A stretch of 64,000 nt of DNA from Alphaproteobacteria bacterium (GTDB lineage Bacteria; Pseudomonadota; Alphaproteobacteria; Bin95). Each line of letters begins with the position of its first letter. Position 1 is the first letter of the stretch. Below, piece by piece: positions 9,128 to 28,139 of the stretch. The stretch spans positions 962,407 through 1,026,406 of the forward strand of contig OZ244951.1 of the NCBI GenBank assembly GCA_965222315.1, given 5' to 3'. The notes under the pieces are model-generated. The model was not told the origin of the DNA. It saw only the letters and a list, made by a program, of their open reading frames with translations, and searched no databases. A program made the position numbers and the translations under genes.

Positions 9128-9445
9128 TTATTTAATAGCCCGACATTCTCCACGGGCGGAAACGCTGGTGATGCGGCAATCGGCATCCATATAGACGACG
9201 ATGCGGCCGGATTTACAACTGCTCGGTCGCGCATAGAATTGGTAGCCCGCGACGCGTTTGTAACCGGAGCTAGCTTGTTGTTCGTCAACATCCCACTTGA
9301 CGTCATTTAGGCTGTCCCAAGACACCCCTTCTTCTGCGAGCTCAGCCTTAACTTCTGCCTCGCACTGATTATCGGCCGCCAGCGCCAGCGTACTGGTCAG
9401 AGCAAAAGCGCAAGCAACCCCTGCGTTGAGCAAAAACTTCGTCAT
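9128..9445 (-). CDS. Small secreted Cys-containing hypothetical protein (105 aa).
   Basis: GGAGGTGA RBS 8 nt upstream. Clear signal peptide MTKFLLNAGVACAFALTSTLALA. Four Cys residues. It is convergent with the 8085 gene. Confidence 0.45.
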   Translation of the reverse strand: MTKFLLNAGVACAFALTSTLALAADNQCEAEVKAELAEEGVSWDSLNDVKWDVDEQQASSGYKRVAGYQFYARPSSCKSGRIVVYMDADCRITSVSARGECRAIK

Positions 9446-9879
9446 TCTTTGTCACCTCCGCTTGACTAAAGATAAAACACTACTTGAAAAAGCGAGTGCC
9501 CAACAAACGAGCGTACTCTGAGCATCGACTATATACAGCAAAGGAAGCATCGGTGAAAAGTCGATTAATGTCATTAATGTCAGTTGCAGTAAGAAAATTT
9601 ACCGTCGCGGCGGCGCAAAAATGGATTATTCTGCGGGCTTCAACTGGGCACCCGCATTAACCATGTCTGGTAGCGACTTTGCCGGTAACATTCGCCGTTG
9701 AGGAATATGGGTAGGTCAGATCGGTCAGTTTGGAACGCTTCAAGCGTTTGTTTGGTGTTGTCAGGCTAACTGGTTGGTGCTCGGTGCGAGGTTGCGATAT
9801 CAATCGGCATGCGCCAGATCCCCTATAGCCGCCATCGCTTTCCCCCTGCCAGTATCCGGCATGTTGTCTGGCTCTACTT

Positions 9880-10670: not shown

Positions 10671-10905
10671 ATTAGTATAACACGGATACATTAAATACGT
10701 AGTAGTCCAAAAATTGTTTCAGTCTATGCCTGCCTCAGGTGCGGATTGTCGTCATGTCTTTTCGGCATCGCGTTTTTCACATTGATTTGGCGTTTGAGTC
10801 GGGACTAGGCTGAATCTCAGAAGAACTACTCGGACCCGGCTTTCTAGCGGAAGGTTGAGAGGTGATTGGATAGCCTCATCGACGTCTGAAAGGCTGAATG
10901 CGTAG

Positions 10906-10921
10906 GGCTCTTCAGAGCCCG
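10906..10921. promoter_or_regulatory. Perfect small hairpin/palindrome GGGCTC-TTCA-GAGCCC, ~20 nt upstream of the sheath-gene GTG/ATG, inside the AT-richer 10.46-10.94 kb leader of the eCIS operon.
   Basis: Read directly from the sequence. The position suggests a 5'UTR structure or an operator. Confidence 0.2.
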
Positions 10922-10977
10922 TTAGAAGCGCTCATGTTTCGGTGGCATGCGCGCTGGAAGCCAAGGAGCGCTTTGCT

Positions 10978-13275: not shown

Positions 13276-13297
13276 CCACGCGAAGGAGGGCACCGTC

Positions 13298-13813
13298 ATG
13301 GCCGAATTCAGCGTTAACCCGCAGCGCTTCGACCCCTACAAAAACTTTAAGTTCCGCGTGCGCTGGGATGGCCGGTTTGTCGCCGGAGTCTCCAAGGTCG
13401 GCGCACTGAAGCGCACGACGGAAGTCGTGGAGCATCGCGTCGGCGGTGACAGCTCGACCAGCCGCAAATCCCCCGGGCGCTCCAAGTTCGAACCGATTAT
13501 GCTGGAGCGCGGCGTCACCCACGACGCCGACTTTGAGGCCTGGGCCAACCTCGTTTGGAATGTCGAAGCGGGATTGGGGGCGGAAGTCTCGCTCGCGAAC
13601 TTCCGCAAAGACATCATCATCGAGATGTATAACGAGGCCGGCCAACTCGCGATTGCCTACAAGGTGTTCCGCTGCTGGGTCTCGGAATTCCAGGCTCTGC
13701 CGGAATTGGACGCTAATGCGAATGCCGTCGCCATTCAGTCAATCAAACTCGAAAATGAGGGCTGGATTCGCGATACCGAGGTGGCCGAGCCAACCGAGCC
13801 GACGCTTGGTTAG
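13298..13813 (+). CDS. eCIS inner tube protein (T4 gp19/Afp1-like, 172 aa). Start at ATG 13298 after GAAGGAGGG.
   Basis: MAEFSVNPQRFDPYKNFKFRVRWDGRFVAGVSKVGAL.. matches the conserved N-terminal strand pattern of the tube family. It sits immediately after the sheath. Confidence 0.75.
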   Translation: MAEFSVNPQRFDPYKNFKFRVRWDGRFVAGVSKVGALKRTTEVVEHRVGGDSSTSRKSPGRSKFEPIMLERGVTHDADFEAWANLVWNVEAGLGAEVSLANFRKDIIIEMYNEAGQLAIAYKVFRCWVSEFQALPELDANANAVAIQSIKLENEGWIRDTEVAEPTEPTLG

Positions 13814-13844: not shown

Positions 13845-14537
13845 ATGACCTCTACCCTCTCGCCTGCCGCACTGCTCCAGGCTTGGGAAACCGCTGAAGG
13901 ACGAAGCACCATCGACCGGCCGCTGGTTCTGCTGTGGGCGGCGGGCGGCGGTGCTGATTTGGCCGATCGCCCCTTGGTGGAGCGCGACCGGGCGCTGCTG
14001 GCGCTCCGCCGGGCGACGTTCGGGGATGAGATGGTCTGCGTGACCGACTGCCCGGCCTGTGGTGAACGCCTGGAGATGGCTGTATCAGCCGCCGCCTTGG
14101 TCGATGCCCTGCCTGCGGCGGAGCCTGAAGTGCTGATGGCGGCGGGCCAAAGTGTGACGGTGCGACCGTTCTCCAGCCGCGACGTGGCCTTGGCCGCTTC
14201 AGATGCGGACGATTCGGAAACCGCCCTGGTGCGGCTTGCCTCCACGTGTGAGGGCGAGCCGTGGCAAGCGGCGCTCGCCTTGGCGGCAGAGCGCTTGCAG
14301 GAAATCCAGGCGGCCGCCGAATTGCGCTTCACGCTGACATGCGGGGCATGCGGCGAGGTTTGGACAGAGGTGCTGGACGTTGCTGCCTATGTCTGGGCGG
14401 AAGTGAGGACCGCCGCCTACCGCCTGTTGGGTGAGGTGGCGGAGATCGCAAGGGCGCTCGGCTGGTCAGAACGGGAGATTCTGGCTTTGAGCCCGGCCCG
14501 CCGCGCCGCCTATCTCCAGATTGCGAGAAGCGGATGA
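13845..14537 (+). CDS. eCIS-associated hypothetical protein (230 aa). It contains CxxC...CxxC pairs (CPACGERLE; CGACGEV), suggesting a zinc-ribbon.
   Basis: RBS GGAGGTG. Translationally coupled to downstream genes (ATGA overlap at 14534). Two CxxC motifs seen directly. Confidence 0.45.
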   Translation: MTSTLSPAALLQAWETAEGRSTIDRPLVLLWAAGGGADLADRPLVERDRALLALRRATFGDEMVCVTDCPACGERLEMAVSAAALVDALPAAEPEVLMAAGQSVTVRPFSSRDVALAASDADDSETALVRLASTCEGEPWQAALALAAERLQEIQAAAELRFTLTCGACGEVWTEVLDVAAYVWAEVRTAAYRLLGEVAEIARALGWSEREILALSPARRAAYLQIARSG

Positions 14538-15277
14538 CGAATCCTCTCGTCAATCTGATCGCCCGTGTCACCGGCCAGGCCGAGCCCCGCCTTCGCCCGC
14601 GCATCGCCTCGCGCTTTGAGGGCGGTGCGATGGCGGGCGAAGGCTTCCAGGAAGTGGCGGGCGAGCAGATTGTCCGCGCCCCGGAAACGCCAGCGCCTTC
14701 AATCGCTCCCCGGCCGCCCCAGCAACCGGCGCCAGCCGCCGAAACGATTGCTACCCAGCAGGGGAACACGGCAGCGCCTGTCGGGCAGCACGAACCCATC
14801 TTTCAGACATCAATCCGGGTAGAGCAGGAGGTTCCTGCTGCCCTGGTGCGCTCAACCGGAACCGCCACTCCGCCACCGCCCTTGATGCCGGAGGTTACGT
14901 CCTCCCCGGAAAACCATCACGAGACGGCACGGGAACCGGCTCTACCAGCGAGCCCGTTTGAGCCGGAGCAGGGGCCTCTATCGCAAGAGCCTCCCGAGCC
15001 CTTGCTCCCCCTGGAACCTCGGAAATTTGAACAAGGCCCGCCACAGCCTGCGCCGGATAGCGAGCCTTTCGCAGGGCTCTCCGCCCCCCAACCCAGCCGC
15101 CAACAGTCGGCAGCCTCCGGTGCCGTGCAGAACGAGCCACCGGAAATCGTCATCAATATTGGCCGTATTGACCTCCGTTCCCCGCCAGCCGCGCCGCCCG
15201 CGCCTCGCCCGCGCCCGCAGCGGCCCAAAACGACCGATCTCGGCGACTATCTGCGCGGCAAGGGGGGCAAGCGATGA
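14534..15277 (+). CDS. Pro/Ala/Gln-rich low-complexity protein (247 aa). Candidate tail-length tape-measure-like (Afp14 analog) or disordered scaffold.
   Basis: 4-nt start/stop overlaps on both sides. Extreme Pro/Glu/Gln content. Position upstream of the DUF4255 and ATPase genes, as for Afp14. Confidence 0.35.
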   Translation: MTNPLVNLIARVTGQAEPRLRPRIASRFEGGAMAGEGFQEVAGEQIVRAPETPAPSIAPRPPQQPAPAAETIATQQGNTAAPVGQHEPIFQTSIRVEQEVPAALVRSTGTATPPPPLMPEVTSSPENHHETAREPALPASPFEPEQGPLSQEPPEPLLPLEPRKFEQGPPQPAPDSEPFAGLSAPQPSRQQSAASGAVQNEPPEIVINIGRIDLRSPPAAPPAPRPRPQRPKTTDLGDYLRGKGGKR

Positions 15278-16611
15278 GCAACGTGCTTGCGATTGCGGCG
15301 GTGACCCAGTTGCTGAAGGACATGCTGAACGATGCCATGATCAATGGCGAGGTGAGTCAGGTGATGGGCGCGGATTTCGCCGTGACCGCGCTCCCGCCCG
15401 ACCGGGTGGTGAACGACCAGGCCGATCAGCAGCAGCCGACCCTGAACGTGTTTCTGCACCGCATCACGCCGAACGCGGCGCTCCAGCAGGATGACTTCCC
15501 GACCCGGGACAGCTCCGGCAGGCTAATCCGGCGGCCGCGGCTCGCGCTCAACCTGCATTATATGCTGACGGCCATCGGGGCTGACGAGCTTCAGGCGGAG
15601 ATCCTGCTCGGCTACGCCATGCAGATGTTTCACGAAACGCCGATCCTGGGCCGCGAGCAAATCCGAAGCGCGCTGCAACTCGCCGGCCCGCCCGATGACT
15701 TGCTGCCAGACAATCTGGGCTTGGTTCAGGCCGCCGCCCTCGCCGATCAGGCGGAACTCATCAAGATCACGCCGCATACGCTGTCCATGGACGATATGTC
15801 GAAGATGTGGACAGCGTTGCAGGCCCGCTACCGCACTACGGTCGCCTATGACGTGTCCCTGGTGCTGATCGAGCGTGAACTGCCGACCCGCCCGACCCTG
15901 CCGGTCCTCAGCCGCGGCGGCCTGCCGGACCCAGTAACGGGCCGCGACCCCGGCGTGCTGGTCCAGCCTAACCTGAATGCAACCGCGCCCTGCCTGCTTT
16001 CCATTGAGCCGCTGGACGGCCAGCCGGTGATGCGCCTCGGCGGGCAGGTGGCCCTGACCGGCGTCGGCTTCACCCGTGGCGATGCCCGCGTTCTTTTCAC
16101 CGAGCCCGGCACCGGCAGCGTGCTCGAACTCGCCCCGTTGGCCCCGGCAACCGACCGGCGGTTGGTCGTGCAACTGCCCGCGGGGCCGCCGCTCGCGGGC
16201 GCGCATCCGCTCGCCAACAGCGCCGCGGATCCGGGTGCATGGCGCATCGGGCCGTTTCACATAGAGGTGCGTCTGACTGAGCCCGATGGCCGCGAAACCC
16301 TGACCAACGCCCTGCCAGCCGCACTAGCGCCCGCAGCGGTACCCATGGCTGCGCCGGACCCCGGCGGCACCCTCATCACCATCGATACCGAGCCGCGCAT
16401 CCGCGCCGGTCAGCGCGTTGCCATCATCGTCGGGGGGGAGATGCAATTGCTGACTTCCCCCGGCGCACCGGCGGCGCAGGTGCAGGCGGTCTTTGCGGGC
16501 CTGCCATCCGGGGTTTCCCTGCCGATCCGCCTGCGGGTGGATGATGTCGATAGTCCGGTGATTGACCGCAGCACCGATCCGCCGAGCCTGATTACGGTGG
16601 CGATCCCATGA
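15274..16611 (+). CDS. DUF4255-type eCIS tail terminator/cap-like protein (Afp16/Pvc16 analog, 445 aa).
   Basis: N-terminus MSNVLAIAAVTQLLKDMLNDAM matches the conserved start of DUF4255 proteins found in eCIS loci. It is directly upstream of the AAA+ ATPase. Confidence 0.55.
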   Translation: MSNVLAIAAVTQLLKDMLNDAMINGEVSQVMGADFAVTALPPDRVVNDQADQQQPTLNVFLHRITPNAALQQDDFPTRDSSGRLIRRPRLALNLHYMLTAIGADELQAEILLGYAMQMFHETPILGREQIRSALQLAGPPDDLLPDNLGLVQAAALADQAELIKITPHTLSMDDMSKMWTALQARYRTTVAYDVSLVLIERELPTRPTLPVLSRGGLPDPVTGRDPGVLVQPNLNATAPCLLSIEPLDGQPVMRLGGQVALTGVGFTRGDARVLFTEPGTGSVLELAPLAPATDRRLVVQLPAGPPLAGAHPLANSAADPGAWRIGPFHIEVRLTEPDGRETLTNALPAALAPAAVPMAAPDPGGTLITIDTEPRIRAGQRVAIIVGGEMQLLTSPGAPAAQVQAVFAGLPSGVSLPIRLRVDDVDSPVIDRSTDPPSLITVAIP

Positions 16612-18533
16612 ACCAACCTGCCGCCTTCGAACCTCGACCATCTGCAACCGGGCGCATGCGCCAGGCGATGGCGGCGGCGGTTGCTGACCTTGGCGAGCGA
16701 TTGGCCGCCTTGTCGACTGGCGAGGAGCCGCAGCCCAAAGACGTGGCCCGCGATCTGGACTCACCGCTTTCCATGCTGGCGGACCTTTTCGGTCTGAATG
16801 GGGCGGAGCAGACCATGCTGCTGCTCGCCGCTGCGGCGGAACTGGAGCCACGCCTTTCCGACCAGATCCGTGCCATTTGCGGCAGCGAGCGCCCGGATGC
16901 CGGCCTCGCCCTGGCGCTAACGGCGGAGGAGGGGTGGGAGGCGCTCTGCCCGGAAGCGCCCCTGCGGCGCTGGCGGCTGGTCGAGCTTGTCGGCAACGGC
17001 CCGATGCTGCGGCGCTCGCTGGTGCTGGACGAGCGCATCACGCATTTTCTGATGGGCATTAACTATTGCGACGGGCGGCTGGAAGGAGTGGTCCGGCTGA
17101 TCGAACCCTCCCGACGCATCGGCGAACGGGAGCAGGCAGCCGCCGGCGCCATCACCGCCGCGTGGGATGAAACCGGCTGCCCGCTGACGGTCATCTTGCT
17201 GGCCAGTCCCGACCGCATCGCAAACCGCGAGGTAGCGGCTCACGGCGCCCGTGGTCTCCGCCTGCGTCTGCTGGCGATCGACGCCGCCGATATTCCGGGC
17301 GACCCGGCGGCGAGGCATGGCTTTGCGGTCCTTCTGGAGCGCGAACTGGTGCTCTCCGGCGCTGCGGCCTTCATTGAAGTTTCCGATGCGGCCGCCGCCC
17401 CGCAAGCCCAGCGTCTGGCCGACAGCCTGCAGGGGCCAACAATACTGGCAGGCGGCGATCCCCCGTTGCCCGCGCGTAGCCCCCGCCGCCGCATCGACCT
17501 TGCCGCGCCGGATCGGTTCGAGCGCCGGGCGTTTTGGCAGGATGCCCTCGGCATTCAGGCGCATGCGCTGGGGCCGGGTCTCGACCGGCTGGCGGAGCAG
17601 TTTGCGCTGGACAGGGGCGGGATCACGGCTACCGTCGAGAGTGCCGTCAATAGCGCGCCCGTCCCGCCGGAAAAGCTGCTGGGTAGCCTCTGGCAGGCGG
17701 CTCGGGTGCAGGGGCGCCGCCATCTGGACAGCCTTGCGAGCCGGATCGAAAGCCGTGCTACCTGGGATGACCTGGTGCTGCCCGCCGAGCCGATGGCGCA
17801 ACTGCGCGATTTGGCGGGGCATGTCCGTGAGTCCTGGCGTGTCCACCAGGAATGGGGCTGGGCCGCGAAGAGTGACCGCGGCCTGGGGGCGGCGGCGCTT
17901 TTCGCCGGGGCCTCCGGCACGGGCAAGACCCTGGCGGCAGAGGTGCTGGCCGGCGAATTGCAGCTCGATCTCTATCGCATCGACCTCAGCCAGGTGATCA
18001 GCAAATATATCGGCGAGACAGAAAAGAACCTTGCCCGCATTTTCGCGGCGGCGGAGGACGGCGGCGCAATCCTGCTGTTCGACGAAGCTGACGCCCTTTT
18101 CGGCAAGCGGAGCGAGGTGAAGGACAGCCACGACCGCTACGCCAACGTTGAAGTCTCCTACCTCCTCCAGCAGATGGAAGCCTACCGTGGCCTGGCGATC
18201 CTCACCACGAACCTGAAGAGCGCGGTCGATACCGCATTCCTTCGACGGCTGCGGTATGTGGTGAACTTTCCGTTCCCAGATGCTGCGGCGCGAGCCGCGA
18301 TCTGGGCGCGGATCTTCCCGCCTCAAACCCCTCTGGACCGTGTTGAGCCTGCACAGCTTGCCCGGCTGAGCATTACCGGTGGCGCAATCCGCTCCATCGC
18401 TTTGAATGCCGCATTCCTCGCCGCCGCCGATGCCAAAGCGGTAGCGTCCGCTCACATTCTGACCGCGGCAAGGCGCGAATACGCGAAGCTGGAGAAGCCC
18501 TTCACCCAGGCGGAGCAGGGGGCCTTCCGATGA
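16608..18533 (+). CDS. eCIS AAA+ ATPase (Afp15/Pvc15-like, 641 aa).
   Basis: Walker A GASGTGKTLAAEVLA. Walker B ILLFDEADALFGKR. Sensor/arginine finger region. Single C-terminal AAA module with a long N-terminal domain, typical of the eCIS ATPase. Confidence 0.85.
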   Translation: MNQPAAFEPRPSATGRMRQAMAAAVADLGERLAALSTGEEPQPKDVARDLDSPLSMLADLFGLNGAEQTMLLLAAAAELEPRLSDQIRAICGSERPDAGLALALTAEEGWEALCPEAPLRRWRLVELVGNGPMLRRSLVLDERITHFLMGINYCDGRLEGVVRLIEPSRRIGEREQAAAGAITAAWDETGCPLTVILLASPDRIANREVAAHGARGLRLRLLAIDAADIPGDPAARHGFAVLLERELVLSGAAAFIEVSDAAAAPQAQRLADSLQGPTILAGGDPPLPARSPRRRIDLAAPDRFERRAFWQDALGIQAHALGPGLDRLAEQFALDRGGITATVESAVNSAPVPPEKLLGSLWQAARVQGRRHLDSLASRIESRATWDDLVLPAEPMAQLRDLAGHVRESWRVHQEWGWAAKSDRGLGAAALFAGASGTGKTLAAEVLAGELQLDLYRIDLSQVISKYIGETEKNLARIFAAAEDGGAILLFDEADALFGKRSEVKDSHDRYANVEVSYLLQQMEAYRGLAILTTNLKSAVDTAFLRRLRYVVNFPFPDAAARAAIWARIFPPQTPLDRVEPAQLARLSITGGAIRSIALNAAFLAAADAKAVASAHILTAARREYAKLEKPFTQAEQGAFR

Positions 18534-18784
18534 GCCGTCAGCGCGTGACACTGCATATCGATCGCATCGTTATCGACGGGCCGCACATGTCCCGCGCCGC
18601 CCTGGCGGACGTAATTTTGGCGGAATTGCAGCGTGCGCTGTCAGCGCCCGGCGCGCTGGATGCCTTGAAGGGGGCCGGGTCCGTGCCGCGGGTTAACGCG
18701 GGCGAAGTGCGCCCCGCCAATTCGGGTCCCACGGGTCTCGGCACCGCCATCGCCCACGCAACCATGGGAGCGTTGAAGCGATGA
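18530..18784 (+). CDS. Small hypothetical protein (84 aa) translationally coupled between the ATPase and the first cargo candidate. Possible adaptor/chaperone.
   Basis: ATGA overlaps at both ends. No recognisable motif. Confidence 0.35.
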   Translation: MSRQRVTLHIDRIVIDGPHMSRAALADVILAELQRALSAPGALDALKGAGSVPRVNAGEVRPANSGPTGLGTAIAHATMGALKR

Positions 18785-20226
18785 AGACCCGCGCCAAACG
18801 CTCTCAAACAACCGCCAATCCTATTGCATTCGCCGGAAATGGCGGCCCGGCGGCCGCTGCGCCAGCGAGCGCGCCGCAACCCAAGCTGCAGGACCCGAAC
18901 CGCTTTCAGCAGGTTCACCAGAAGGTCCGGGTCTCCGGTCCTACCCGCCCGCCGCCCTCCGGCGGTGGCCCCGCGCAGAAGCGTAAGCCCTGGGTCGATC
19001 CCTCGGCGCCTGGCAAGATGGACGGTACTGATGGCGTCATCTTCAACCAGGCGTTCAATTTCCTCGATATGCGGAACTTCACGACCCCGTCGTCGAAAAA
19101 CACGACGGAGGCGAACCTGGACACCGATGCGGTCGATGCCCACAACCGGGTAAAGGGTCACTATCCGCAAATAACCTCTCCGCTCTCCGACAGCGCGATT
19201 GAGGGTGCGGTCAGCGTGTTCAAGCCATCGTCGATCAAAGGCGACATGGATTACCTGAATCAGTGGATGGACAATTTTATCGGCAAAATGTCGAAGGCCG
19301 ATGAATTTGACATTGATCCTTCGAACGCGGCCTACCGCGCGATGATCGAGAAACTGATCAAGGACAAGACCGTCGGCCCCAAAATCCTGATCCTCGCCTC
19401 CCGGCAATCGGCCTTCGCCCGTGGTGACGGCAGCAAGCGGGAGGTTTTCGTCCATTCGAAAGTGAAAGCCGCCGACCGGCGCACCACGCTGATCCACGAG
19501 CTGGTGCACTTCTACGCACACAAGACCTACCGGAAGTGGGTCGAAGCCTCGAAGGACGAGCGCCATTACAACGAGGGCCTGACCGAGTGGCTCGCGCGGA
19601 AAGTGATGACCGCCTCGGAATTGAGCGGCCGGAACAAATACCAGAACCGCGTCGATACGGTGAATAAGCAGATCGCGGCGCACATCCCGGAAGACGGAAT
19701 CGCCAGGGCCTTTTTCGGCGGGGAGGTCTGGCGCTTCGAAACCCGCAGCGACGAGGCGCGCGCGGCCTTCAAGACCGCGACGGGGATCGAGGAGGGAGCC
19801 AGCGCCGATGTGGAGCGGGAAGCGTCCCGTACCGGCGCGGGTCTGGTCCAGACCGTGGAACCGCGCAAGCACTACCGTTTCCTGAACCTGGGCTTTGCCG
19901 AGTCCCAGCCGAAAAGCGAGCATGAGGCGACCTTCAAGGGGGTAAAGGCTCAGACATTCGATAAGGATTCCTCGCTGAAATTCCGCTTTGTCGGCCATGC
20001 TTCCAGCCCCGGCAGTGAGGCCGCTAACAGGGAAGTCGCGCGCAAACGCTCGGTTGCCTTCTACCGGATGGCCCGGCGGGAAGGCGTTCCGTGGAACCGG
20101 CTGGCTGATGCCGCCCGCCCGCCGCATTTCGGCGAGAGCAAGCCCACCGTGACCGAAGAGGACGCCATCACCCGCGCCATGAACCGGCGGGTAGAGATGT
20201 TCCTGGTGAAGGGAACTGGGCCATGA
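18781..20226 (+). CDS. Putative eCIS cargo/effector. It has a disordered Pro/Gly-rich N-terminus, a central HExxH zinc-metallopeptidase-like motif (LIHELVHFYAH) and a C-terminal OmpA/MotB-like peptidoglycan-binding domain.
   Basis: HELVH motif seen directly. C-terminal ..FRFVGHASSPGSEAANREVARKRSVAFYRMARREGVPWNRLADAARPPHFGESKPTVTEEDAITRAMNRRVEMFLV matches the OmpA_C consensus (GHxD/S..G...N..LS..RA...L...G......GES.P.....NRRVE). Confidence 0.5.
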   Translation: MKTRAKRSQTTANPIAFAGNGGPAAAAPASAPQPKLQDPNRFQQVHQKVRVSGPTRPPPSGGGPAQKRKPWVDPSAPGKMDGTDGVIFNQAFNFLDMRNFTTPSSKNTTEANLDTDAVDAHNRVKGHYPQITSPLSDSAIEGAVSVFKPSSIKGDMDYLNQWMDNFIGKMSKADEFDIDPSNAAYRAMIEKLIKDKTVGPKILILASRQSAFARGDGSKREVFVHSKVKAADRRTTLIHELVHFYAHKTYRKWVEASKDERHYNEGLTEWLARKVMTASELSGRNKYQNRVDTVNKQIAAHIPEDGIARAFFGGEVWRFETRSDEARAAFKTATGIEEGASADVEREASRTGAGLVQTVEPRKHYRFLNLGFAESQPKSEHEATFKGVKAQTFDKDSSLKFRFVGHASSPGSEAANREVARKRSVAFYRMARREGVPWNRLADAARPPHFGESKPTVTEEDAITRAMNRRVEMFLVKGTGP

Positions 20227-22199
20227 GCGAGCGCGTCTTTACCGGTAACGATTTCGCCCCCGTTGCCGCCCGCAGACCGGAACCGGCGGAAAAGGTCCGC
20301 ATGGCCCTCGGCCTGCAAGCGAAGTTGCGGGTAAACGCCCCCGGCGACCACTGGGAACGGGAAGCCGACCGGATTGCCGATGCTGTCGTCGCAGAGCGAC
20401 CGGTCCCTCTCCAAAGCCCATTGCCGGTATCGCCGGCGCTCCAACGCCAGCCGGAGGAGGAAGAAGAGGAACTCCAGGCCAAGCCGGAGCCGCTACAGCG
20501 TCAGGCCGAGGAGGAGGAAGAAGAGGAATTGCTTCAGCCGAAGGCAGAGTCGCTACAGCGTCAGGCGGAGGAGGAGGAGGAAGAAGAAGAGATGCTCCAA
20601 CCCAAAGCCGGTGGCATCGCTCATGCTGAGTCCACGCCTGGCCCCGGTTTCGCAGCCGCGCTGGCCAGTGAAAGCCAAAGCGGCCAGGGCATCGACCATG
20701 CGACCCGCGCTGCCTTCGAGCCCCGCTTCGGCCGCGACCTCTCCTCGGTGCGATTGCACACGGGCGCGAGAGCCGAGCACCTCAGCCGTCAGATCAACGC
20801 GCGGGCCTTCACGCATCGCAACCACATCTATTTTGCCAACGGCCAGTTGGATACCCAAAGCCGTGAAGGCCGCCGTCTCCTCGCCCATGAGATCACCCAC
20901 ACCTTGCAACAGGGCGAGGACAGAGGCGATCTGGCGCGCGAGCCGCTACAGCGTCAAACCGGCCCGGGAACGCCTGCGGCTGCGCCCGCTCCCGGTGCCG
21001 CCCCTGGACCCGCCGCAGCACCGGCGGCTCCGACGCGACCGACTTCCGTCACGTTTAACTTTGATCCGACCATCGCCATTCCGCAAACACCGGGCGGGCT
21101 CACAGGCATGACCGCGAGCACGAACGGCACCAATGTCACTTGGTCGATCGCGGCTCATACCGCAGCCTCTGTAGCCGCGGGCACAACCATAAACGCTTCT
21201 ACGGGCGCTATCGCGCTCGATGCCGGACAGGTTGGGGGCCAGCTTCGGGTGACGGCAACCAATTCCGCAGGTTTTGCATTCAGCGATTTCCGGGTCGCCT
21301 CCACACCCACCGGCATCGATGCAACCTCGGTCTTGTCTGCTCTCAGCGGGACATCCAGCCCCTATGGCGCTGCCTTCCAGCACACCTTCACTAGCGCCAA
21401 TGGGTCTGCGACCGTGCTAGAGCAGCTGCGTATTGGCGAGCGGTTTCCGACAGCACCGACGCCGGCGGCTGCGACTCACCGTTTCGTCCCGCCGGCTTGG
21501 CCGTTTCACCCGCCGAGCTTCACCTTGAGCACTGGCACGCTTGCCAACAATGCTGCCGGCGCGTTCGTGCTCGACGCTAACGGGGAGTTCAATGCGCCGC
21601 CCGCAGGCTCGACCCTGATCCGGGGGGACAATGTCTCGGTTCCGCACGCCGCCATTGATGCAGGCGATCATGTGCAGAGCCATACGACGCCAGCGCCCAC
21701 GAACCGACTGCCGGTGACATTCTCGCTGGACCAGCAGTTCCACTTCTTCAATCCGCGCGCCGCTTCCGGCAGCCGCTGGACGCATTTCACTACGACGAAC
21801 CACAGCCGCACGCTCAGACGTAGCGGCACAGATCTGGAGGTGGTGACGACGGTCAACGGTGAGGAGCATGTGGACGATTACCAAGGCCCGCCCGCGTTCA
21901 CGAACCTCACTGCATCGCCCGTCAACACGCCGAAAAGCCGGCCGGCCCCGCCAGGCGGAGGAGCAGCCCCAGCTGCACGGACGGTTGCCCTCAGCGTCGA
22001 GCAAATCGGCGACCTGCCGGCTGGCCAAAGTGTGAGGTGGCGCTTCATCGGCAACCGGCGCGGCTGCACCCTCACACCCGATCCGAGCGACGCCACCCAG
22101 GCTGAGTTGACCGTCGGCACGACGGCTGGAACCGTTACAATCGAAGTATCGTTGAATACTGGCGGTAATGCCGACCGCGTTCAGGTGAGGATCGTTTGA
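20223..22199 (+). CDS. DUF4157-domain putative eCIS toxin/effector (658 aa) with an inserted Glu-rich tandem repeat and a C-terminal beta-rich domain of unknown function.
   Basis: DUF4157 hallmarks: GDHWEREADRIADAVV ... FEPRFGRDLSSVRLHTGARAEHLSRQINARAFTHRNHIYFANGQ...GRRLLAHEITHTLQQG (HExxH). DUF4157 is known to mark eCIS-associated toxin genes. Confidence 0.7.
   Translation: MSERVFTGNDFAPVAARRPEPAEKVRMALGLQAKLRVNAPGDHWEREADRIADAVVAERPVPLQSPLPVSPALQRQPEEEEEELQAKPEPLQRQAEEEEEEELLQPKAESLQRQAEEEEEEEEMLQPKAGGIAHAESTPGPGFAAALASESQSGQGIDHATRAAFEPRFGRDLSSVRLHTGARAEHLSRQINARAFTHRNHIYFANGQLDTQSREGRRLLAHEITHTLQQGEDRGDLAREPLQRQTGPGTPAAAPAPGAAPGPAAAPAAPTRPTSVTFNFDPTIAIPQTPGGLTGMTASTNGTNVTWSIAAHTAASVAAGTTINASTGAIALDAGQVGGQLRVTATNSAGFAFSDFRVASTPTGIDATSVLSALSGTSSPYGAAFQHTFTSANGSATVLEQLRIGERFPTAPTPAAATHRFVPPAWPFHPPSFTLSTGTLANNAAGAFVLDANGEFNAPPAGSTLIRGDNVSVPHAAIDAGDHVQSHTTPAPTNRLPVTFSLDQQFHFFNPRAASGSRWTHFTTTNHSRTLRRSGTDLEVVTTVNGEEHVDDYQGPPAFTNLTASPVNTPKSRPAPPGGGAAPAARTVALSVEQIGDLPAGQSVRWRFIGNRRGCTLTPDPSDATQAELTVGTTAGTVTIEVSLNTGGNADRVQVRIV
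20439..20604 (+). repeat. Three in-frame ~57-60 nt tandem repeats encoding LQRQ(P/A)EEEEEEE(L)LQ(A/P)K(P/A)E(P/S) inside the DUF4157 gene.
   Basis: Direct repeat visible in both the DNA and the protein (PEEEEEELQAKPEPLQRQAEEEEEEELLQPKAESLQRQAEEEEEEEEMLQPKA). Confidence 0.8.
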
Positions 22200-22855
22200 T
22201 GACCGGCTATCCCCGCTCCCCCCGTCTGACCCGCGCGGGCATCGTCCTGATCGGCCCGGAAAATGGCGCGGTCGAGCGGATCATCACGCTGCAATACACG
22301 CCCGACTCGCTCTCCCGCTCGCTGGAAGTGCAGGGCGTCGCCGATGAGCCGGACCGCTCCCAGCCGCTGCGTCTGACCGGACCTGCTGTTGAGACCATCA
22401 CGCTGGAGGCGGAACTGGACGCCACCGACCAGCTAGAATTCCCCGACCAGAACGCGGATGCGGCGGAGGTTGGGCTCTTCCCGATCCTCTCCGCGCTGGA
22501 AACAATGATCCATCCGACCGTGGCCCAGTTGGAACGCCAGAACCAACAAGCGGGCGCGGGTTCTTTCAGCATCACACCTGCGGAAACGTCGCTCGCTCTC
22601 TTCATCTGGAGCAAGAACCGGATAGCGCCGGTTCGCCTTACCAATCTTTCGATCACGGAGGAGTTTTTCGACCCCGCCCTGAACCCGATCCGGGCCAAGG
22701 TCAGCCTGACGTTGCGCGTGTTGAGCGTCGATGATCTGGGCTTCCGCCACCGCGGCGCGGGCCTCTATCTCTCCTACCTCCAAGCCAAAGAGCAGCTAGC
22801 TGCCCGCGCGCAAGGCGGCGAACTCTCCGCGTTTGGCATTGCCGGATTGCCCTGA
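22196..22855 (+). CDS. Second tube-family-like protein (219 aa; possible tube initiator, Afp5/Afp7 analog).
   Basis: ITLQYTPDSLSRSL.. and C-terminal KVSLTLRVLS strands resemble the gp19/Hcp-like tube fold. It sits just upstream of the LysM and spike genes. Weak, motif-level evidence only. Confidence 0.35.
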   Translation: MMTGYPRSPRLTRAGIVLIGPENGAVERIITLQYTPDSLSRSLEVQGVADEPDRSQPLRLTGPAVETITLEAELDATDQLEFPDQNADAAEVGLFPILSALETMIHPTVAQLERQNQQAGAGSFSITPAETSLALFIWSKNRIAPVRLTNLSITEEFFDPALNPIRAKVSLTLRVLSVDDLGFRHRGAGLYLSYLQAKEQLAARAQGGELSAFGIAGLP

Positions 22856-22886: not shown

Positions 22887-23246
22887 ATGAAGAACCCGAT
22901 CCAAGCCCTATTCGAAGCCGGCATCGTTGAGCGAACGGATTTCCCGGCCGACAGCCGCTACCACGGCATCCCCACTACCTCCATCGAGGGAAGCGCCGCC
23001 GGCGCCGTCACCTACCTGAAGCGCCGTTTCGCGCCCGCGCCGGAGGCGTTTGCCACGCTCCGCTATCGCCGCGTGACGCAGGGGGATCGCCTCGACCAGA
23101 TCGCCGCTGCCGAAGTCGGTAATCCGGAGGCTTTCTGGATGCTCGCGGATGCGAACGGCGTCATTTGGGCGGAAGAATTGGAGGAGCCTGGCAAGACGCT
23201 ACGCCTGACCCTCCCGGCCGGCGTTCCCGGGGCGGAAGAGGACTAG
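22887..23246 (+). CDS. LysM-like tail protein (P2 gpX-like, 119 aa).
   Basis: VTQGDRLDQIAAAEVGNPEAFWMLADANGV matches the LysM/tail-X pattern. Conserved position before the gpD-like hub. Confidence 0.55.
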   Translation: MKNPIQALFEAGIVERTDFPADSRYHGIPTTSIEGSAAGAVTYLKRRFAPAPEAFATLRYRRVTQGDRLDQIAAAEVGNPEAFWMLADANGVIWAEELEEPGKTLRLTLPAGVPGAEED

Positions 23247-23260
23247 AGACAGGCGTAACC

Positions 23261-24388
23261 ATGATCAAAACGATCGACCTCTCGCTGATGTTCGGGCCCG
23301 GCATTCCGGTTGCCGCCCCGCGCGAGGTTGTGGAAGCGTTGCAGTCAGTCTCAATCCAAGACAATGTGGGCGACACGCCCAGCGGCTTCGATCTGGTGTT
23401 CTCGCTGGAGAAGGACTCTCCACTCAATACCGTGTTCCTGTTGGCGGGCGGCGGCGCTCTGCCGATCCTGCGGGTCGCCCTGATCGCGACCATTAGCGGC
23501 CAGGCCACAACCTTAATCAACGGCGTCGTGACCCGTACCGAGATGACGCCCGGCAAAGGCAGTCAGCCCGCGACGCTGAAGGTGATGGGCCGCGACCTGA
23601 CGGCGACCATGGAAATCATCGATTTCTCCGGCATTCCTTATGTCGGCATGCCGCCCTTTGCCCGCGTCGCCTTGATCCTAGCGAAATACGCCTGGCTTGG
23701 CGTGATCCCGCAGGTGATTCCCTCTGCCGAAGGGCCGCCTTTGCCGACCGACCGCATTCCGCGGCATCAGGATTCCGACCTCGCCTATATCCGCCGCCTG
23801 GCTGACGAGGCCGGCTATACCTTCTTCATGAAGCCGGGACCGGCCCCGGCAACCAGCTTTGCCTATTGGGGGCCGGAAGTCCGGGTGGGGCAGGTGCAAC
23901 CGGCGCTGACGGTGGAGAGCGGCGTCACGACCAATGTCGAGGAACTGAGCTTCACCTTCGACAAGGACGGGACGGAGATACCCATCGTCTACATCCACAA
24001 TAAAGAGACCAAGGCGCCGATACCGATCCCCATCCCAAGCGCCATCCCGTTCCAGCCGCCCCTGGGCGCCGTCCCGCCCATTCCGCCGAAGATCACGCGG
24101 CTGACCAACACGGCCCAATTGAACCCGTTCGAGGCCATCGTCCGTGGGTTCGCTTATGCTGCGCGCCATTCCGATGCGGTGACCGGCACCGGGACGCTGG
24201 ATGTGCTTCGCTACGGGCGGCCGCTGAAGGCGCGCGGGCTCGTCGGCGTGCGCGGCGCGGGGCATGCCTTCGATGGCGTCCATTATGTCGAGTCCGTGCG
24301 GCACGAGTTGCAGCGCGGCTCCTACAAGCAGTCGTTCACGCTCAAGCGGTCCGGCCTTCTCCCCACGCAATCGGCGATACCGGCATGA
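23261..24388 (+). CDS. Phage late-control gpD-like baseplate hub protein (VgrG-N/gp27-like, 375 aa). Start at ATG 23261, not the track's 23165.
   Basis: MIKTIDLSLMFGPGIPVAAPREVVEALQSVSIQDNVGDTPSGFDLVFSLEK is characteristic of gpD/Afp8 N-termini. Confidence 0.7.
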   Translation: MIKTIDLSLMFGPGIPVAAPREVVEALQSVSIQDNVGDTPSGFDLVFSLEKDSPLNTVFLLAGGGALPILRVALIATISGQATTLINGVVTRTEMTPGKGSQPATLKVMGRDLTATMEIIDFSGIPYVGMPPFARVALILAKYAWLGVIPQVIPSAEGPPLPTDRIPRHQDSDLAYIRRLADEAGYTFFMKPGPAPATSFAYWGPEVRVGQVQPALTVESGVTTNVEELSFTFDKDGTEIPIVYIHNKETKAPIPIPIPSAIPFQPPLGAVPPIPPKITRLTNTAQLNPFEAIVRGFAYAARHSDAVTGTGTLDVLRYGRPLKARGLVGVRGAGHAFDGVHYVESVRHELQRGSYKQSFTLKRSGLLPTQSAIPA

Positions 24389-24894
24389 CACAGACCTACT
24401 ACGGCAAATATCGCGGCACGGTGGTGAACAATGTGGATCCGATGCTCATTGGCCGGGTGCAGGCGATTGTCCCGGCGGTTTCCTCCGTGGCGCTGACAAG
24501 CTGGGCCATGCCATGCTTCCCGATGAGCGGTATCCAGACCGGCTCGCTAGCCGTGCCGCCCATCGGGGCCGGTGTCTGGGTCGAGTTCGAAGGCGGCGAC
24601 CCGGACTATCCGATCTGGAGCGGCTGTTTCTACGGTAGCGCTGCGGAGGTCCCTGCGCTGCACCAGCTAACCCCGCCCGGCGTCTCCGCCGTCACCATGC
24701 AGACGATGCTGCAAAACGGCATCACGGTAACAGACCTGCCCGGCCCGACCGGCGGCATTGTCCTGAAGACGACGGCGGGCGCATCGCTGATCGTGAATGA
24801 CACCGGCATCTATATTTCCAATGGCCGCGGCGCGATGATCACGCTCGTCGGGCCGACCGTGACCGTGAACAACGGCGCGCTCACGGTGATTTAG
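24385..24894 (+). CDS. gpV/gp5-like baseplate spike (OB-fold + beta-helix tip, 169 aa).
   Basis: YRGTVVNNVDPMLIGRVQAIVP..GVWVEFEGGDPDYPIW is the conserved gpV/VgrG OB-domain signature. Confidence 0.75.
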   Translation: MTQTYYGKYRGTVVNNVDPMLIGRVQAIVPAVSSVALTSWAMPCFPMSGIQTGSLAVPPIGAGVWVEFEGGDPDYPIWSGCFYGSAAEVPALHQLTPPGVSAVTMQTMLQNGITVTDLPGPTGGIVLKTTAGASLIVNDTGIYISNGRGAMITLVGPTVTVNNGALTVI

Positions 24895-24914: not shown

Positions 24915-25235
24915 ATGCCCGGACCAATCCTGCATCTCGGCGCGACGCTTACCTGCAGCCATGGCGGCCAGGCACTGCCAGCCGCACCGTTCCCTCGGGT
25001 GACCGTTTCCGGCCAGCCGGTGGTGACCCAGACCTCGCCCTGGATGATAGCCGGGTGTCCGTTCGTGCCGACCGCTGGCAATGGGCCATGCGTGACCGGC
25101 ACGTTCGTGACGGCAGCGACCAGAGTGTTCGCAGGCGGCCAGCCGGTCGTTCTGATGGACAGCGTCAGCACCTGCATTCCTACCGGTACGCCAATGATCC
25201 CAGTGCAGGCGCAAACCCGCGTGATCGCGACCTGA
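24915..25235 (+). CDS. PAAR-repeat spike-tip protein (106 aa).
   Basis: Two PAAR-like motifs (GQPVVTQTSPWM.., GQPVVLMDSVSTCIPTG). Size and position after the spike gene. Confidence 0.7.
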   Translation: MPGPILHLGATLTCSHGGQALPAAPFPRVTVSGQPVVTQTSPWMIAGCPFVPTAGNGPCVTGTFVTAATRVFAGGQPVVLMDSVSTCIPTGTPMIPVQAQTRVIAT

Positions 25236-25254: not shown

Positions 25255-25617
25255 ATGCAGCTCGACTTCCCCTATCACTTCGACGGACGCAACCGGACCG
25301 CCGCGACCAGCGAGGCGGATCATATCCGGGACATGATCGAGCAAATCCTGTTCACCACGCCGGGTGAGCGGGTGAACCGGCCGGATTTCGGGGCGGGCGT
25401 GCTGCAATTGGTCTTTGGCCCGGCAAGCCCCGAAGCAGCCGCCACCGCTGAGTTGATGATTACCGGCGCGCTGCAACAATATCTCGGCCGCCGCATCACA
25501 CTCGCCGGGGTATCGACCGATGCGGACGACTCGACCCTGCGCATCCGCATCGCCTACCAGTTGAACAGCACCGGCGCGCAGGTGGTTGAAGAATTTGAGC
25601 GGGGGCTTGGCCCATGA
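25255..25617 (+). CDS. gp25/GPW-like baseplate wedge protein (120 aa).
   Basis: DHIRDMIEQILFTTPGERVNRPDFGAGV matches the conserved gp25 lysozyme-like core. Confidence 0.75.
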   Translation: MQLDFPYHFDGRNRTAATSEADHIRDMIEQILFTTPGERVNRPDFGAGVLQLVFGPASPEAAATAELMITGALQQYLGRRITLAGVSTDADDSTLRIRIAYQLNSTGAQVVEEFERGLGP

Positions 25618-28139
25618 TCTACCATTGCTGCGACCCGCGCCGCCGCGAACTCGTGCTTGCGCATCCGACGCTGAACGGCATCGATTTTATCGAAGTGCTG
25701 GACAATGAAGCCCCGCCACTGACGCCACGCCAGCGCACGCTGCTCGTGCGTTTCCTGAAGCCTGCGCCTGTACTGACCACCGATAATTTTGAGATCGAAG
25801 GCGGCGAGCGCATCGCTGACGTAGGGGTGGAGTGGGTCTCCCCGGCAGACGTGCCGGACCTTGCGGTGATCGATCCGATTGAGGCGGGACTGCCCGCCTA
25901 TCTGACCGGCCTGCCGCAACCGGACCATGTCGTCGCGGTCAGGACCAGTTCGAGCGGCGATTACTCCATCTACCGCCTGCGCCTGGTGGCGGCCCCCGGT
26001 TCGCTCAGCCCGCCGAATGGCATCGACCGGCTGCTGGCGGAGATCGCGTTCTCGTTCAAGGTCGAATGCCCGACCGACTTCGATTGCAAGCCCGCGCTCG
26101 ACTGTCCGCCGGAACTGGAAGAAACGCCGGCGCTTTCCTACCTCGCGAAGGACTATCAGAGCTTCCGCCGTTTGATGCTGGGCCGGATGGCGCAACTCAT
26201 GCCCGACTGGCGGGAGCGCAGTCCCGCAGACCTGGGCGTCACCATGGTCGAGGCGCTGGCCTATACCGCCGACCGCCTCAGCTATGCCCAGGATGCGGTC
26301 GCGACCGAGGCTTATCTCGCCACCGCCCGGCGGCGCTCCTCAGTCCGGCGGCATGCGCGGCTGGTCGACTACTACATGCACGATGGCGGCAACGCACGCG
26401 CCTGGGTGCAAGTGCGGACCTCCCTGAACGGCACAAGCATCCAGGCTGGGCGCGAGCGCTTCCTGACCCAGGTCACCGGTTTCGACGCCCAGATTCCCTT
26501 GGCGGAAGAAGACGACGCCCTGAACCGCTCGCCCGTGGTGTTCGAGCCGCTCTACGACACGGTCCTCTGGGTCGCGCACAATCAGATCTTTTTCTACGAC
26601 TGGGGTGATGAGGAATGCTGCCTGCCCGCAGTGGCAACGCGGGCGACCTTGGCGGGCAACCTCTCGAACCTGGCCATTGGCGACACCCTGATCTTCGAGG
26701 AGCGGATAGCCCCCCATACCGGTCTCGCCGCCGATGCCGATCCGAACCACCGCCACGCCGTGCAGCTTTGCGCGGTCGAAAGTGGCCTGACCGATGAACT
26801 GACCGGCGCGGCCATCACCGAAATCCGCTGGGCGGAGGAAGACGCGCTTCCGTTCCCGCTCTGCATTTCCGCCCGTGCTGACGAGACCGCGGGCGGCGGC
26901 CTGATCGAGAATGTTTCGCACGCCCTCGGCAATATCGTGCTGGTGGACCATGGCCGCAGCATCGCGGACGAGGACCTGGGGGCGGTGCCGCAGCCGCACT
27001 TGTACCTAGTGCCTCAGCCTGCCAATGTGGCCTGTGACCGGCAGGAGCCGCAGGCTGTGCCGCCGCGTTTCCGCCCGCTCCTGGCGGAAGGGCCGGTTAC
27101 CCAGGCAGAGCCATGGCCCACGCTGAATTCGCCTGCCTCCGCCTTCGCCGCGATCCGCCAGACGATGGACGCACGCCGCCCGGCAGTGACGCTTGCCGGT
27201 ACGACGGCCATCGGCACCGATCCGTGGGATGCGCGGCGCGACCTGCTGGGCACCGCAGCCGACGACCGCTACTTCGTGGTTGAGACGGAGCGCGACGGCA
27301 GCGCCCGCCTGCGCTTCGGCGATGACCGTAACGGCCTCCGCCCCAATTCCGGCACGGCGTTCCTCGCAAGCTACCGGGTTGGCAATGGCGTCGAAGGCAA
27401 TGTCGGCGCGGACGCGATCCGCCATGCCATCTCCGACCAGGGCGGCATCCTCGCAGTGCGCAATCCGCTGCCGGGCCTGGGCGGCATAGAACCGGAAAGC
27501 ATGCAGGCGGTGCGGGAGGCCGCGCCCTATGCCTACCGGACCCAGGAACGCGCCGTAACGCCTGCTGACTATGAGGAAGTGGCGAAGCGCTTCCCGGATG
27601 TGCAGCGCGCTGCCTGCACCTTCCGCTTTAACGGCCATGGCCACACGGTGTTCCTGACGGTGGACCGCTTTGGCGGCCGCCCGATCACGGCGGAGTTCGA
27701 AGCCGATCTGATCGTGTTCCTCGACCGGTTCCGCATGGCCGGTTATGACCTGGAAATCGATGCGCCGCGCTACGTCGCGCTGGAACTCGACCTGTTCGTC
27801 TGCGTTTGTCCGGACCACTTCCGCGCGCAAGTGCGCGAGGAGGTGTTGCGCGTGCTCGGGACGGGGCGCACTGCGGACGGCTCAACGGGCTTCTTCCATC
27901 CGGATAGTTTCAGCTTCGGCGATCCGGTTTACCTGAGCGCCATCTACGCCGCCGTCATGGATGTTGAGGGCGTCACCTCGGTCGAGGCAACGCTGTTCCG
28001 CCGCCGCGGGCGGCCCGATCCGGTTCCCTTGGAGGACGGCGTGATCGAGATGGGGCGGCTCGAAATCGCCCAGCTCGAGAACAACCCGAACTTCCCAGAG
28101 CGCGGCGCGCTCCGGCTGGAGATGGGAGGCGGCAAATGA
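25614..28139 (+). CDS. Baseplate J-like protein (gp6/Afp11 analog, 841 aa).
   Basis: VTPADYEEVAKRFPDVQRAAC is the typical baseplate-J C-terminal signature. Size and position are consistent. Confidence 0.7.
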   Translation: MIYHCCDPRRRELVLAHPTLNGIDFIEVLDNEAPPLTPRQRTLLVRFLKPAPVLTTDNFEIEGGERIADVGVEWVSPADVPDLAVIDPIEAGLPAYLTGLPQPDHVVAVRTSSSGDYSIYRLRLVAAPGSLSPPNGIDRLLAEIAFSFKVECPTDFDCKPALDCPPELEETPALSYLAKDYQSFRRLMLGRMAQLMPDWRERSPADLGVTMVEALAYTADRLSYAQDAVATEAYLATARRRSSVRRHARLVDYYMHDGGNARAWVQVRTSLNGTSIQAGRERFLTQVTGFDAQIPLAEEDDALNRSPVVFEPLYDTVLWVAHNQIFFYDWGDEECCLPAVATRATLAGNLSNLAIGDTLIFEERIAPHTGLAADADPNHRHAVQLCAVESGLTDELTGAAITEIRWAEEDALPFPLCISARADETAGGGLIENVSHALGNIVLVDHGRSIADEDLGAVPQPHLYLVPQPANVACDRQEPQAVPPRFRPLLAEGPVTQAEPWPTLNSPASAFAAIRQTMDARRPAVTLAGTTAIGTDPWDARRDLLGTAADDRYFVVETERDGSARLRFGDDRNGLRPNSGTAFLASYRVGNGVEGNVGADAIRHAISDQGGILAVRNPLPGLGGIEPESMQAVREAAPYAYRTQERAVTPADYEEVAKRFPDVQRAACTFRFNGHGHTVFLTVDRFGGRPITAEFEADLIVFLDRFRMAGYDLEIDAPRYVALELDLFVCVCPDHFRAQVREEVLRVLGTGRTADGSTGFFHPDSFSFGDPVYLSAIYAAVMDVEGVTSVEATLFRRRGRPDPVPLEDGVIEMGRLEIAQLENNPNFPERGALRLEMGGGK

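Follow-up and report, generated by a model that had tools for sequence, protein, structure and literature searches.

A candidate Cgo-type cargo protein with a portable DUF4157 head and a conserved beta-sandwich passenger in an alphaproteobacterial extracellular contractile injection system

The 64,000-nucleotide (nt) stretch of contig OZ244951.1 analysed here (the window, to which coordinates refer) comes from an Alphaproteobacteria bacterium and carries a complete extracellular contractile injection system (eCIS) operon on its + strand, as recognised with Pfam. In the middle of that operon lies an open reading frame (ORF; 20223..22199, + strand, from the ORF list) for a DUF4157 protein of 658 amino acids (aa). 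We propose, with a confidence that stands about evenly balanced, that its product is an eCIS-loaded protein of the Cgo1/Cgo2 type, in which a portable delivery head is joined to a conserved passenger other than a toxin. A tripartite layout is already known for eCIS cargo, and the C-terminal cassette of the window protein resembles a binding module retained with the machine rather than an exchangeable toxin. The initial annotation of this DNA had placed the gene, recognised its DUF4157 domain, noted three tandem poly-Glu repeats and described translational coupling within a structural operon, all of which agree with what we found; its further proposals, that the repeats split the domain and that the C-terminal part is a presumptive toxic or host-interaction module, fared less evenly, as set out below. 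Related genomic loci are given L-numbers and homologous proteins P-numbers.

DUF4157 has been described as a statistical marker of eCIS toxins, enriched in validated ones, and its own function has been called elusive (PMC8213781, PMC11297309). In AlgoCIS, the cargo proteins Cgo1 and Cgo2 begin with a disordered N-terminal region, carry DUF4157 in the centre and end in a C-terminal domain that varies; both are found in the tube lumen. Their loading requires the N-terminal region, DUF4157 being dispensable, and the AAA+ protein Alg15 has been proposed as the mediator of cargo loading. Judged from sequence and models, the window protein fits this class on every feature that can be checked: it shares the tripartite layout and, as far as sequence and AlphaFold2 (AF2) prediction describe the window, the setting in an eCIS cluster with a Cis15-type AAA+ ATPase. 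Just as the two cargo genes of that one system share head features, the ortholog of the neighbouring gene orf481 in L089 has a DUF4157 core. Unlike Cgo1/Cgo2, the window protein ends in a clade-conserved cassette of immunoglobulin-like (Ig), beta-sandwich and Ig domains encoded beside the tube initiator, and its spacer is expanded into three poly-Glu units. Because the layout has already been published for Cgo1/Cgo2, the architecture is less unusual than the initial annotation assumed.

With a 19-sequence family alignment, AF2 predicted the C-terminal 384 aa (275-658) as all beta, with a predicted local distance difference test score (pLDDT) of ~90. The earlier description of ~400 aa of beta-rich sequence with no recognisable motif is thus borne out, since no significant Pfam, NCBIfam or PHROG match was obtained for the cassette. 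Domain 1 matches multi-Ig chains in Foldseek and has a weak PKD_6 match (E 0.005), and domain 2, modelled alone, reached a predicted template modelling score (pTM) of 0.82. When the cassette was compared with the Protein Data Bank (PDB) by Foldseek, the matches included titin, contactin, the S-layer proteins SbsC and SbsB, cadherins, the adhesin FdeC and the Ig domain of lambda gpV, with no enzyme among them. A fold search of BFVD with the cassette returned nothing, and no viral contig encodes the domain. The cassette was therefore rejected as a known tail component or as a domain of phage origin, its confidently modelled beta domains having no fold of a known phage or CIS tail protein.

The cassette family is small, with 112 representatives among 1.84 billion proteins and 22 clusters in a word-indexed search; scans of metagenomes yielded 0 and 1 loci, and the nearest named relatives of the window protein belong to Rhodovulum. 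According to our own hidden Markov models (HMMs), Ig1-mid-Ig3 is a fixed unit in which 'ig3' (domain 3) always follows 'mid' (domain 2), and what precedes it differs among members: heads with motif then core, core then motif or motif only, no head at all, or the cassette placed first. Only 24 of the 62 cassette family members carry DUF4157. The other domains fused to the cassette (RibLong, PG_binding_1, LRR, PPC and Big_2) are of surface or binding types, not toxins. Head-less cassette proteins have disordered N-termini, many with a LALQRSAGNAAV-type motif, and no Sec signal peptide was found in them, so that ordinary Sec-secreted adhesins were discarded as an explanation. A motif of the type LxLQRSAGNxAV was observed in the disordered N-terminal leader of the head-less proteins P0054, P0056, P0060, P0061, P0064, P0068-P0070 and P0078, and it may be a second kind of CIS-associated N-terminal tag. 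Within the middle domain, the polar residues Y381, H387, E406, D469, Q504 and Y553 are invariant or near-invariant, a conservation pattern that points to a functional site, whether binding or catalytic.

Comparison of loci separates what is constant from what varies. L001 (R. steppense), L004, L088, L089 and L090 have an identical gene order, with the cassette protein directly upstream of the tube initiator. In L001, L089 and L090 the cassette is 60-62% identical to that of the window, and in L003 and L004 it is 41-42% identical; for the two groups of loci the AAA+ ATPase gives 59-62% and 47-59%, and gp6 gives 64-70% and 48-58%. Divergence of the cassette thus parallels that of the AAA+ ATPase, Pvc16, gp6 and gp7, while protein length ranges from 406 to 658 aa within the clade. 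The slot just upstream of the cassette gene is empty in L001 and L090, is filled by orf481 in the window, and in L088 (99% identical) holds orf481 split into 324 + 138 aa; in L089 it holds a 578-aa ortholog (61% identity) whose extra N-terminal part is the DUF4157 core mentioned above. The 481-aa orf481 product has a disordered Pro/Ala/Gly-rich N-terminus, an HExxH region reading IHELVH with a weak Peptidase_M78 match, and an OmpA-like peptidoglycan-binding C-terminus (NCBIfam E 5e-9), and its gene overlaps the DUF4157 gene by 4 bp. In its presence/absence variation orf481 behaves like a gene of cargo type, and it is the better effector candidate at the locus. In L003 the arrangement is different: the cassette has a gene of its own (P0018), and downstream of it lies the gene for a 1,290-aa protein (4958-8830) that shares the window-type head, comprising a Cys motif, LQAK, GDPFELEADRAAEAVM, an acidic spacer and a DUF4157 core, and that also has a second DUF4157 core without an ExxAD helix of its own. 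Helical and transmembrane-like segments make this protein Tme-like (see below). Taken together, the L003 arrangement, the variation of the slot and the conservation of the cassette indicate that the head is portable, that the cassette is a conserved passenger and that orf481 is variable and cargo-type.

The head itself is organised around the DUF4157 core. PF13699 (DUF4157, renamed eCIS_core) matches with E 1.8e-26 and 92.6 bits against a cut-off of 22, and its profile positions 2-77 of 79 align with aa 157-232. This match is a single stretch downstream of the repeats, for which reason the notion of repeats splitting the Pfam domain was rejected; what stands of the earlier claim is that the repeats lie between a conserved N-terminal element and the HExxH core. 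The HExxH motif, H222-E-I-T-H226, is intact, with H222, E223 and H226 invariant in 19 homologs, and the core is modelled at pLDDT 80-89. Its conserved partner is an upstream element, GDHWEREADRIADAVV, at aa 41-56, for which AF2 predicted a helix at aa 43-56 (pLDDT ~75) with disordered flanks. A genome scan returned 548 relatives, from cyanobacteria, Chloroflexota, Bacteroidota, Acidobacteriota and Proteobacteria as well as methanogenic and halophilic archaea, and the tblastn matches mostly ran from ~query residue 31 to ~231-241. The helix motif was located upstream of HExxH in 71 of 80 cross-phylum loci by a loose regular expression, two of these (L057, L081) looking spurious. As the expression fixed the E.EA[DE] positions, only conservation at the flanking residues counts as independent evidence, and there K reaches 82%, L 86%, D 98%, A 97% and V 91%.

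The remainder of the head is a disordered, acidic arm. Low confidence (pLDDT <50) was assigned to aa 1-37, 60-104 and 118-137 of the N-terminal region, which has a net charge of -19. The tandem units begin with LQRQ at aa 73, 91 and 111, contain Glu runs of 6, 7 and 8 residues, and close with LQAK or LQPK; Tandem Repeats Finder (TRF) reports a 60-nt period, 2.3 copies and a score of 185, and the segment is 38% Glu. The copy-number variation among homologs that the initial annotation had raised does exist. There are three units in the window protein and P0001, two in P0002, P0005 and P0013-16, about one in P0003, P0004, P0011 and P0012, a single degenerate unit in P0010, and none in P0006, P0007 and P0009. 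The L088 gene, 97.5% identical, differs by two compensating 3-bp indels within GAG/GAA runs, i.e., codon slippage. We also considered the repeats as an unusual insertion into a compact domain and rejected this, for two reasons. The distance from GDxxExEAD to HExxH is 177 aa in the window, within the family range (median 154, range 85-256, in 71/80 other loci), and spacers in other DUF4157 loci are likewise acidic, with D/E runs of up to 9. It follows that the poly-Glu repeats expand a naturally variable acidic tether.

A short motif is enriched in these disordered parts. Across 127 DUF4157 heads, the tetrapeptide [LIVM]Q[RAP][KQ] averages 1.94 copies per head, compared with 0.08 in shuffled sequences and 0.05 in downstream regions of equal length, an enrichment of ~24-fold in the disordered parts of the head; its sites cluster in three places, namely the spacer (153), the stretch directly ahead of the helix motif (69) and the one directly behind HExxH (22). 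The window protein has eight copies, at aa 31, 73, 84, 91, 104, 111, 125 and 242 (0.10 expected), and since six of the eight come from the tandem repeat, the repeat multiplies a family-wide motif. The Pro/Ala linker that follows has pLDDT <50 at aa 232-259 and is 14-80 aa long in homologs. Another element near the N-terminus of many heads, upstream of LQxK and ExEAD, is a Cys motif, (Q)R-x-C-A-C-G-x(6-10)-C-x(2)-C. It was seen in P0003, P0005, P0011, P0019-P0021 and the L003 protein at 4958-8830, and the window protein is without it; it could be a small zinc knuckle.

In the mechanism that we favour, the head (aa 1-~245) would present its disordered, strongly acidic arm, with the eight copies of the short motif, to the AAA+ ATPase of the operon, which by analogy with Alg15 is the presumed loader of cargo with disordered N-termini. 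The ATPase would recognise this arm and feed the protein into the tube lumen beside the tube initiator and the spike. The helix of the arm (E45-x-x-A-D49) would fold back on H222-E-x-x-H226 of the core to complete an M48-like mini-zincin, the poly-Glu spacer looping out between them, and after the Pro/Ala linker the Ig-like, beta-sandwich, Ig-like cassette would bind a component of the target surface or envelope, or a partner in the machine, instead of acting as an enzyme toxin. The head would then be a delivery, and possibly a processing, module. In Streptomyces, DUF4157 proteins have been found to bind, or to be purified together with, proteins of the spike and the tube initiator, which speaks for this reading. 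The anatomy of the gene, its conservation and synteny, the folds and the motif statistics are results of the analysis, and lumen loading, by analogy, the assembly of a zincin from helix and core, and the binding role of the cassette are the three steps that we infer.

Two other accounts of the gene have to be weighed against a delivered, Cgo-type protein. The more serious competitor, which we nevertheless hold to be rather unlikely, is that the product, instead of being delivered, is a fixed structural or assembly part of this eCIS clade, for instance a lumen plug, an adaptor attached to the tube initiator and spike, or a stand-in for a missing tape measure. Strict synteny and the lack of a recognisable tape measure keep it alive. 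The gene is retained in every locus at a constant position, overlapping the start codon of the tube initiator, so that it could equally encode a part of the machine, and its C-terminal domain diverges at the rate of structural proteins. Across the operon (10942-36408), no conventional alpha-helical tape-measure (Cis14) gene was recognisable with Pfam, NCBIfam or PHROG, and this position could for that reason carry the tape-measure role; the Pro-rich, disordered-looking orf247 product and the beta-rich product of a 716-aa ORF were both rejected as conventional tape measures. Published work offers a parallel in the Streptomyces davawensis protein Tme, a DUF4157 protein related to tape measures, which co-purifies with spike and tube initiator (PMC11126660). 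Tme shares with the window protein a DUF4157 near the N-terminus and a gene just upstream of the tube-initiator, spike-hub and spike genes, i.e., an equivalent position, but it exceeds 2,000 aa, is mostly disordered or helical, and has transmembrane helices, tape-measure homology and an EndA-like nuclease (PMC11126660). The window protein, by contrast, has 658 aa and an all-beta C-terminal domain, and lacks the long helical and transmembrane portions of Tme. Tape measures have a mostly alpha-helical middle and a length that scales with the tail, whereas AF2 predicts no predominantly helical middle region in the window protein and its cassette is globular. L003, unlike the window, has a Tme-like protein and the cassette side by side, and the two are therefore not equivalents. 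In the structure of the Anabaena CIS no ordered part could be assigned to the DUF4157 proteins, which were proposed to be lumen cargo there, and in AlgoCIS such proteins behaved as lumen cargo. The wide range of total length within the clade also argues against a structural part, as do head-less cassette genes that in some cases adjoin unrelated genes, an observation made on short contigs (P0037, P0041 and P0060 being too short for context).

The other account, in which the C-terminal ~400 aa form a new eCIS-delivered toxin domain and DUF4157 serves as the toxin marker, we regard as improbable. The enrichment of DUF4157 in validated toxins speaks for it, as does a middle domain without known relative, whose conserved polar residues could form the catalytic site of a novel enzyme. 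eCIS-associated toxins also share with the window protein an N-terminal DUF4157, a linker and then an unrelated C-terminal domain (PMC8213781, PMC11297309). In the window, however, that domain is a conserved binding-type beta module in mid-operon, between orf481 and the tube initiator, and no toxic or enzymatic C-terminal fold was found with Foldseek, Pfam, NCBIfam or PHROGs. Ig-like and beta-sandwich folds are typical of binding modules, the domains fused to the cassette elsewhere are of binding or surface types, and a haloarchaeal system secretes DUF4157 proteins, some of them non-toxic; in published assays several secreted DUF4157 proteins were non-toxic. Because a conserved position and divergence at the rate of structural genes are unlike interchangeable toxins, the toxic half of the earlier proposal lacks support, and the host-interaction half is still plausible. 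Against the Cgo-type reading itself it has to be said that loading, location and binding of the window protein are all argued by analogy, and that the possible catalytic use of the polar residues and the equally possible structural role count on the other side.

Whether the upstream helix belongs to the zincin-like fold is a separate matter. The Pfam core stops just past HExxH, without an obvious third zinc ligand. When the family profile was compared with all PDB sequences, the sole match was the M48 metallopeptidase BepA, in two pieces, the core aligning with NAFAF...VMAHEISHVTQR and the N-terminal motif with QNEQEADRIGIQVLQ. In hhalign, with a cross-phylum profile of 133 sequences, the core aligned with the NAFAF...HEISH segment of BepA at a probability of 83% (P 9e-6), and the best match of the motif alone was BepA 199-214, the E201 helix (P 3.5e-4). 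Among 68 natural E. coli ORF segments scored with the core HMM, the top four were the M48 peptidases BepA, HtpX, YcaL and LoiP, whose real scores were reached in 0, 0, 3 and 3 of 500 shuffle trials, respectively; all four carry E..AD 59-83 residues downstream of HExxH. The zinc ligands of BepA are H136, H140, E201 on the next helix, and H246 (PMC7950410). H136/H140 align with the HExxH of the window protein, and E201, the first Glu of EQEAD, is equivalent to E45. With BepA, HtpX, LoiP and YcaL the family thus shares the NAxA...HExxH strand-plus-helix and a Glu in an E-x-x-A-D helix (PMC7950410), the DUF4157 motif EQEADR(V/I)A being nearly identical to EQEADRIG of BepA. It differs in that most DUF4157 proteins have the putative ligand helix upstream, in a permuted order, on a tether of 60-150 disordered residues, and in that the domain is far smaller, without an H246-type plug or a PF01435 match. 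Both orders are natural, helix-core as well as core-helix (P0019, P0025, P0028, P0035), as would be the case for a helix that docks on the core by way of a flexible tether. It is therefore plausible from sequence comparison that a single M48-like mini-zincin is assembled out of helix 41-58 and core 143-232, with the poly-Glu spacer looped out, and if so, the earlier remark on a split domain would be right in substance.

Several results weigh against such a fold. The M48 link is weak by sequence (E ~0.8 in the PDB comparison), and the motif HMM is significant for BepA alone, not for HtpX, LoiP or YcaL. Peptidase_M48 (PF01435) gave no match at E up to 10 with the native protein, and none with natural core-then-motif proteins or with a synthetic permuted construct, so that Pfam does not support direct membership in M48. 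Motif-only proteins exist, as does a second core without a motif. These same points favour a different account, in which the ExEAD helix is purely a loading or partner-binding peptide unrelated to zinc, DUF4157 is self-contained, and the likeness to M48 reflects convergence or chance; in AlgoCIS, loading needs the N-terminal region, where the motif would fall, and does not need the core. We give this account appreciable weight, somewhat short of an even chance. Against it stand a core that ends after HExxH without an obvious third ligand and that is M48-like by independent comparison, a motif that matches exactly the ligand-bearing helix of BepA, and the natural occurrence of both orders. No mention of DUF4157 together with M48 was found in a literature search.

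The fuller proposal is that DUF4157 is a split, usually circularly permuted M48-like zincin with its third ligand on a separate ExxAD helix, held by a disordered acidic tether in which the [LIVM]Q[RAP][KQ] motifs lie. Taken jointly with the steps that would follow from it, we consider this unlikely. A split zincin could remain unfolded and inactive during threading and storage in the lumen and assemble only after ejection; once assembled, it might cut at the QR[KQ] motifs flanking each module and so free the passenger. Proteins with the motif alone and proteins with the core alone could likewise supply each other's missing half in trans and so join cargo to adaptor, and the number of poly-Glu repeats would tune the length of the tether or the number of motifs.

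The features of the gene and of the operon are collected in Table 1.

Table 1. Coordinates of the DUF4157 gene, its parts and the surrounding eCIS operon in the window.
Feature	Position	Strand	Remarks
Whole DUF4157 gene	20223..22199	+	portable DUF4157 head and three-domain beta cassette; AF2 mean pLDDT 76
Conserved N-terminal helix motif LQAKLRVNAPGDHWEREADRIADAVVAE	20313..20396	+	aa 31-58; E45 proposed as third zinc ligand
Three tandem acidic units LQRQ-E(6/7/8)-LQ(A/P)K	20439..20615	+	aa 73-131; disordered spacer, pLDDT <50
DUF4157/eCIS_core zincin-like core	20691..20918	+	aa 157-232; HExxH aa 222-226, nt 20886-20900
Disordered Pro/Ala-rich linker	20919..21044	+	aa 233-274; fourth LQRQ at aa 242
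Cassette domain 1, Ig-like beta-sandwich	21045..21293	+	aa 275-357; pLDDT ~90; own HMM 'ig1' recurs across the family
Cassette domain 2, elaborated ~215-aa beta-sandwich	21294..21938	+	aa 358-572; without close known relative
Cassette domain 3, Ig-like beta-sandwich	21969..22196	+	aa 583-658; pLDDT >90
Sheath	10942-13275	+	
gp19-type tube	13229-13813	+	
230-aa ORF	13845-14537	+	weak T4_baseplate match
orf247	14534-15277	+	Pro-rich, 247 aa
Pvc16_N terminator	15274-16611	+	
Cis15-type AAA+ ATPase	16608-18533	+	PF00004 and PF22977
small84	18530-18784	+	84 aa
orf481	18781-20226	+	
Tube-initiator-like (Cis5-like) gene	22199-22855	+	PF19266 CIS_tube E 4e-4, under curated cut-off; TGATG junction
119-aa ORF	22887-23246	+	
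gpD-like hub	23165-24388	+	
gpV OB spike	24385-24894	+	
PAAR-like	24915-25235	+	
gp25	25255-25617	+	
Two Baseplate_J-like proteins	25614-30928	+	
Fibre-like proteins	30925-36408	+	

The DUF4157 gene is tightly embedded in this operon, its start overlapping orf481 in an ATGA at 20223-20226 and its stop overlapping the ATG of the tube initiator in a TGATG at 22197-22201. Sites resembling promoters or terminators occurred no more often than in shuffled sequence. The small84 ORF lies downstream of the AAA+ ATPase and ahead of the cargo slot, overlapping both neighbours; it matches no family, and its position holds ORFs of 70-92 aa in L001, L003, L004, L088, L089 and L090. The product of orf247 has no Pfam, NCBIfam or PHROG match, and only its termini are kept between loci (17% coverage); it might act as an unusual length determinant or chaperone. 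At the far end, a 1,104-aa protein (33094-36408, + strand) combines DUF6519 (E 1.5e-34) with a right-handed beta-helix and is probably a fibre or receptor-binding component of the eCIS. Upstream of the sheath gene, the ORF-poor stretch 9445-10942 holds a 98-aa ORF (10162-10458, + strand), with VPDAIVTDRLRSYGAALR, which we take to resemble the C-terminal fragment of an IS6-family transposase; if so, this would suggest that the eCIS operon is bordered by a remnant of an insertion sequence.

No marker of eCIS cargo is more widespread than DUF4157, yet its role is still called unknown or elusive in the literature. The Pfam model omits a conserved helix that resembles the one bearing the third zinc ligand of M48-type proteases, and three points are possibly new for the family: a putative split zincin of M48 type, a short motif that is enriched in the head, and a head that is portable between unrelated passengers. 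For the gene in the window, a toxin annotation would probably be wrong, and the conserved Ig/beta-sandwich cassette is better regarded as a candidate binding or adaptor module. The helix, the motif and the portable head offer testable handles on cargo loading and on possible processing, which matters for the engineering of eCIS for protein delivery.

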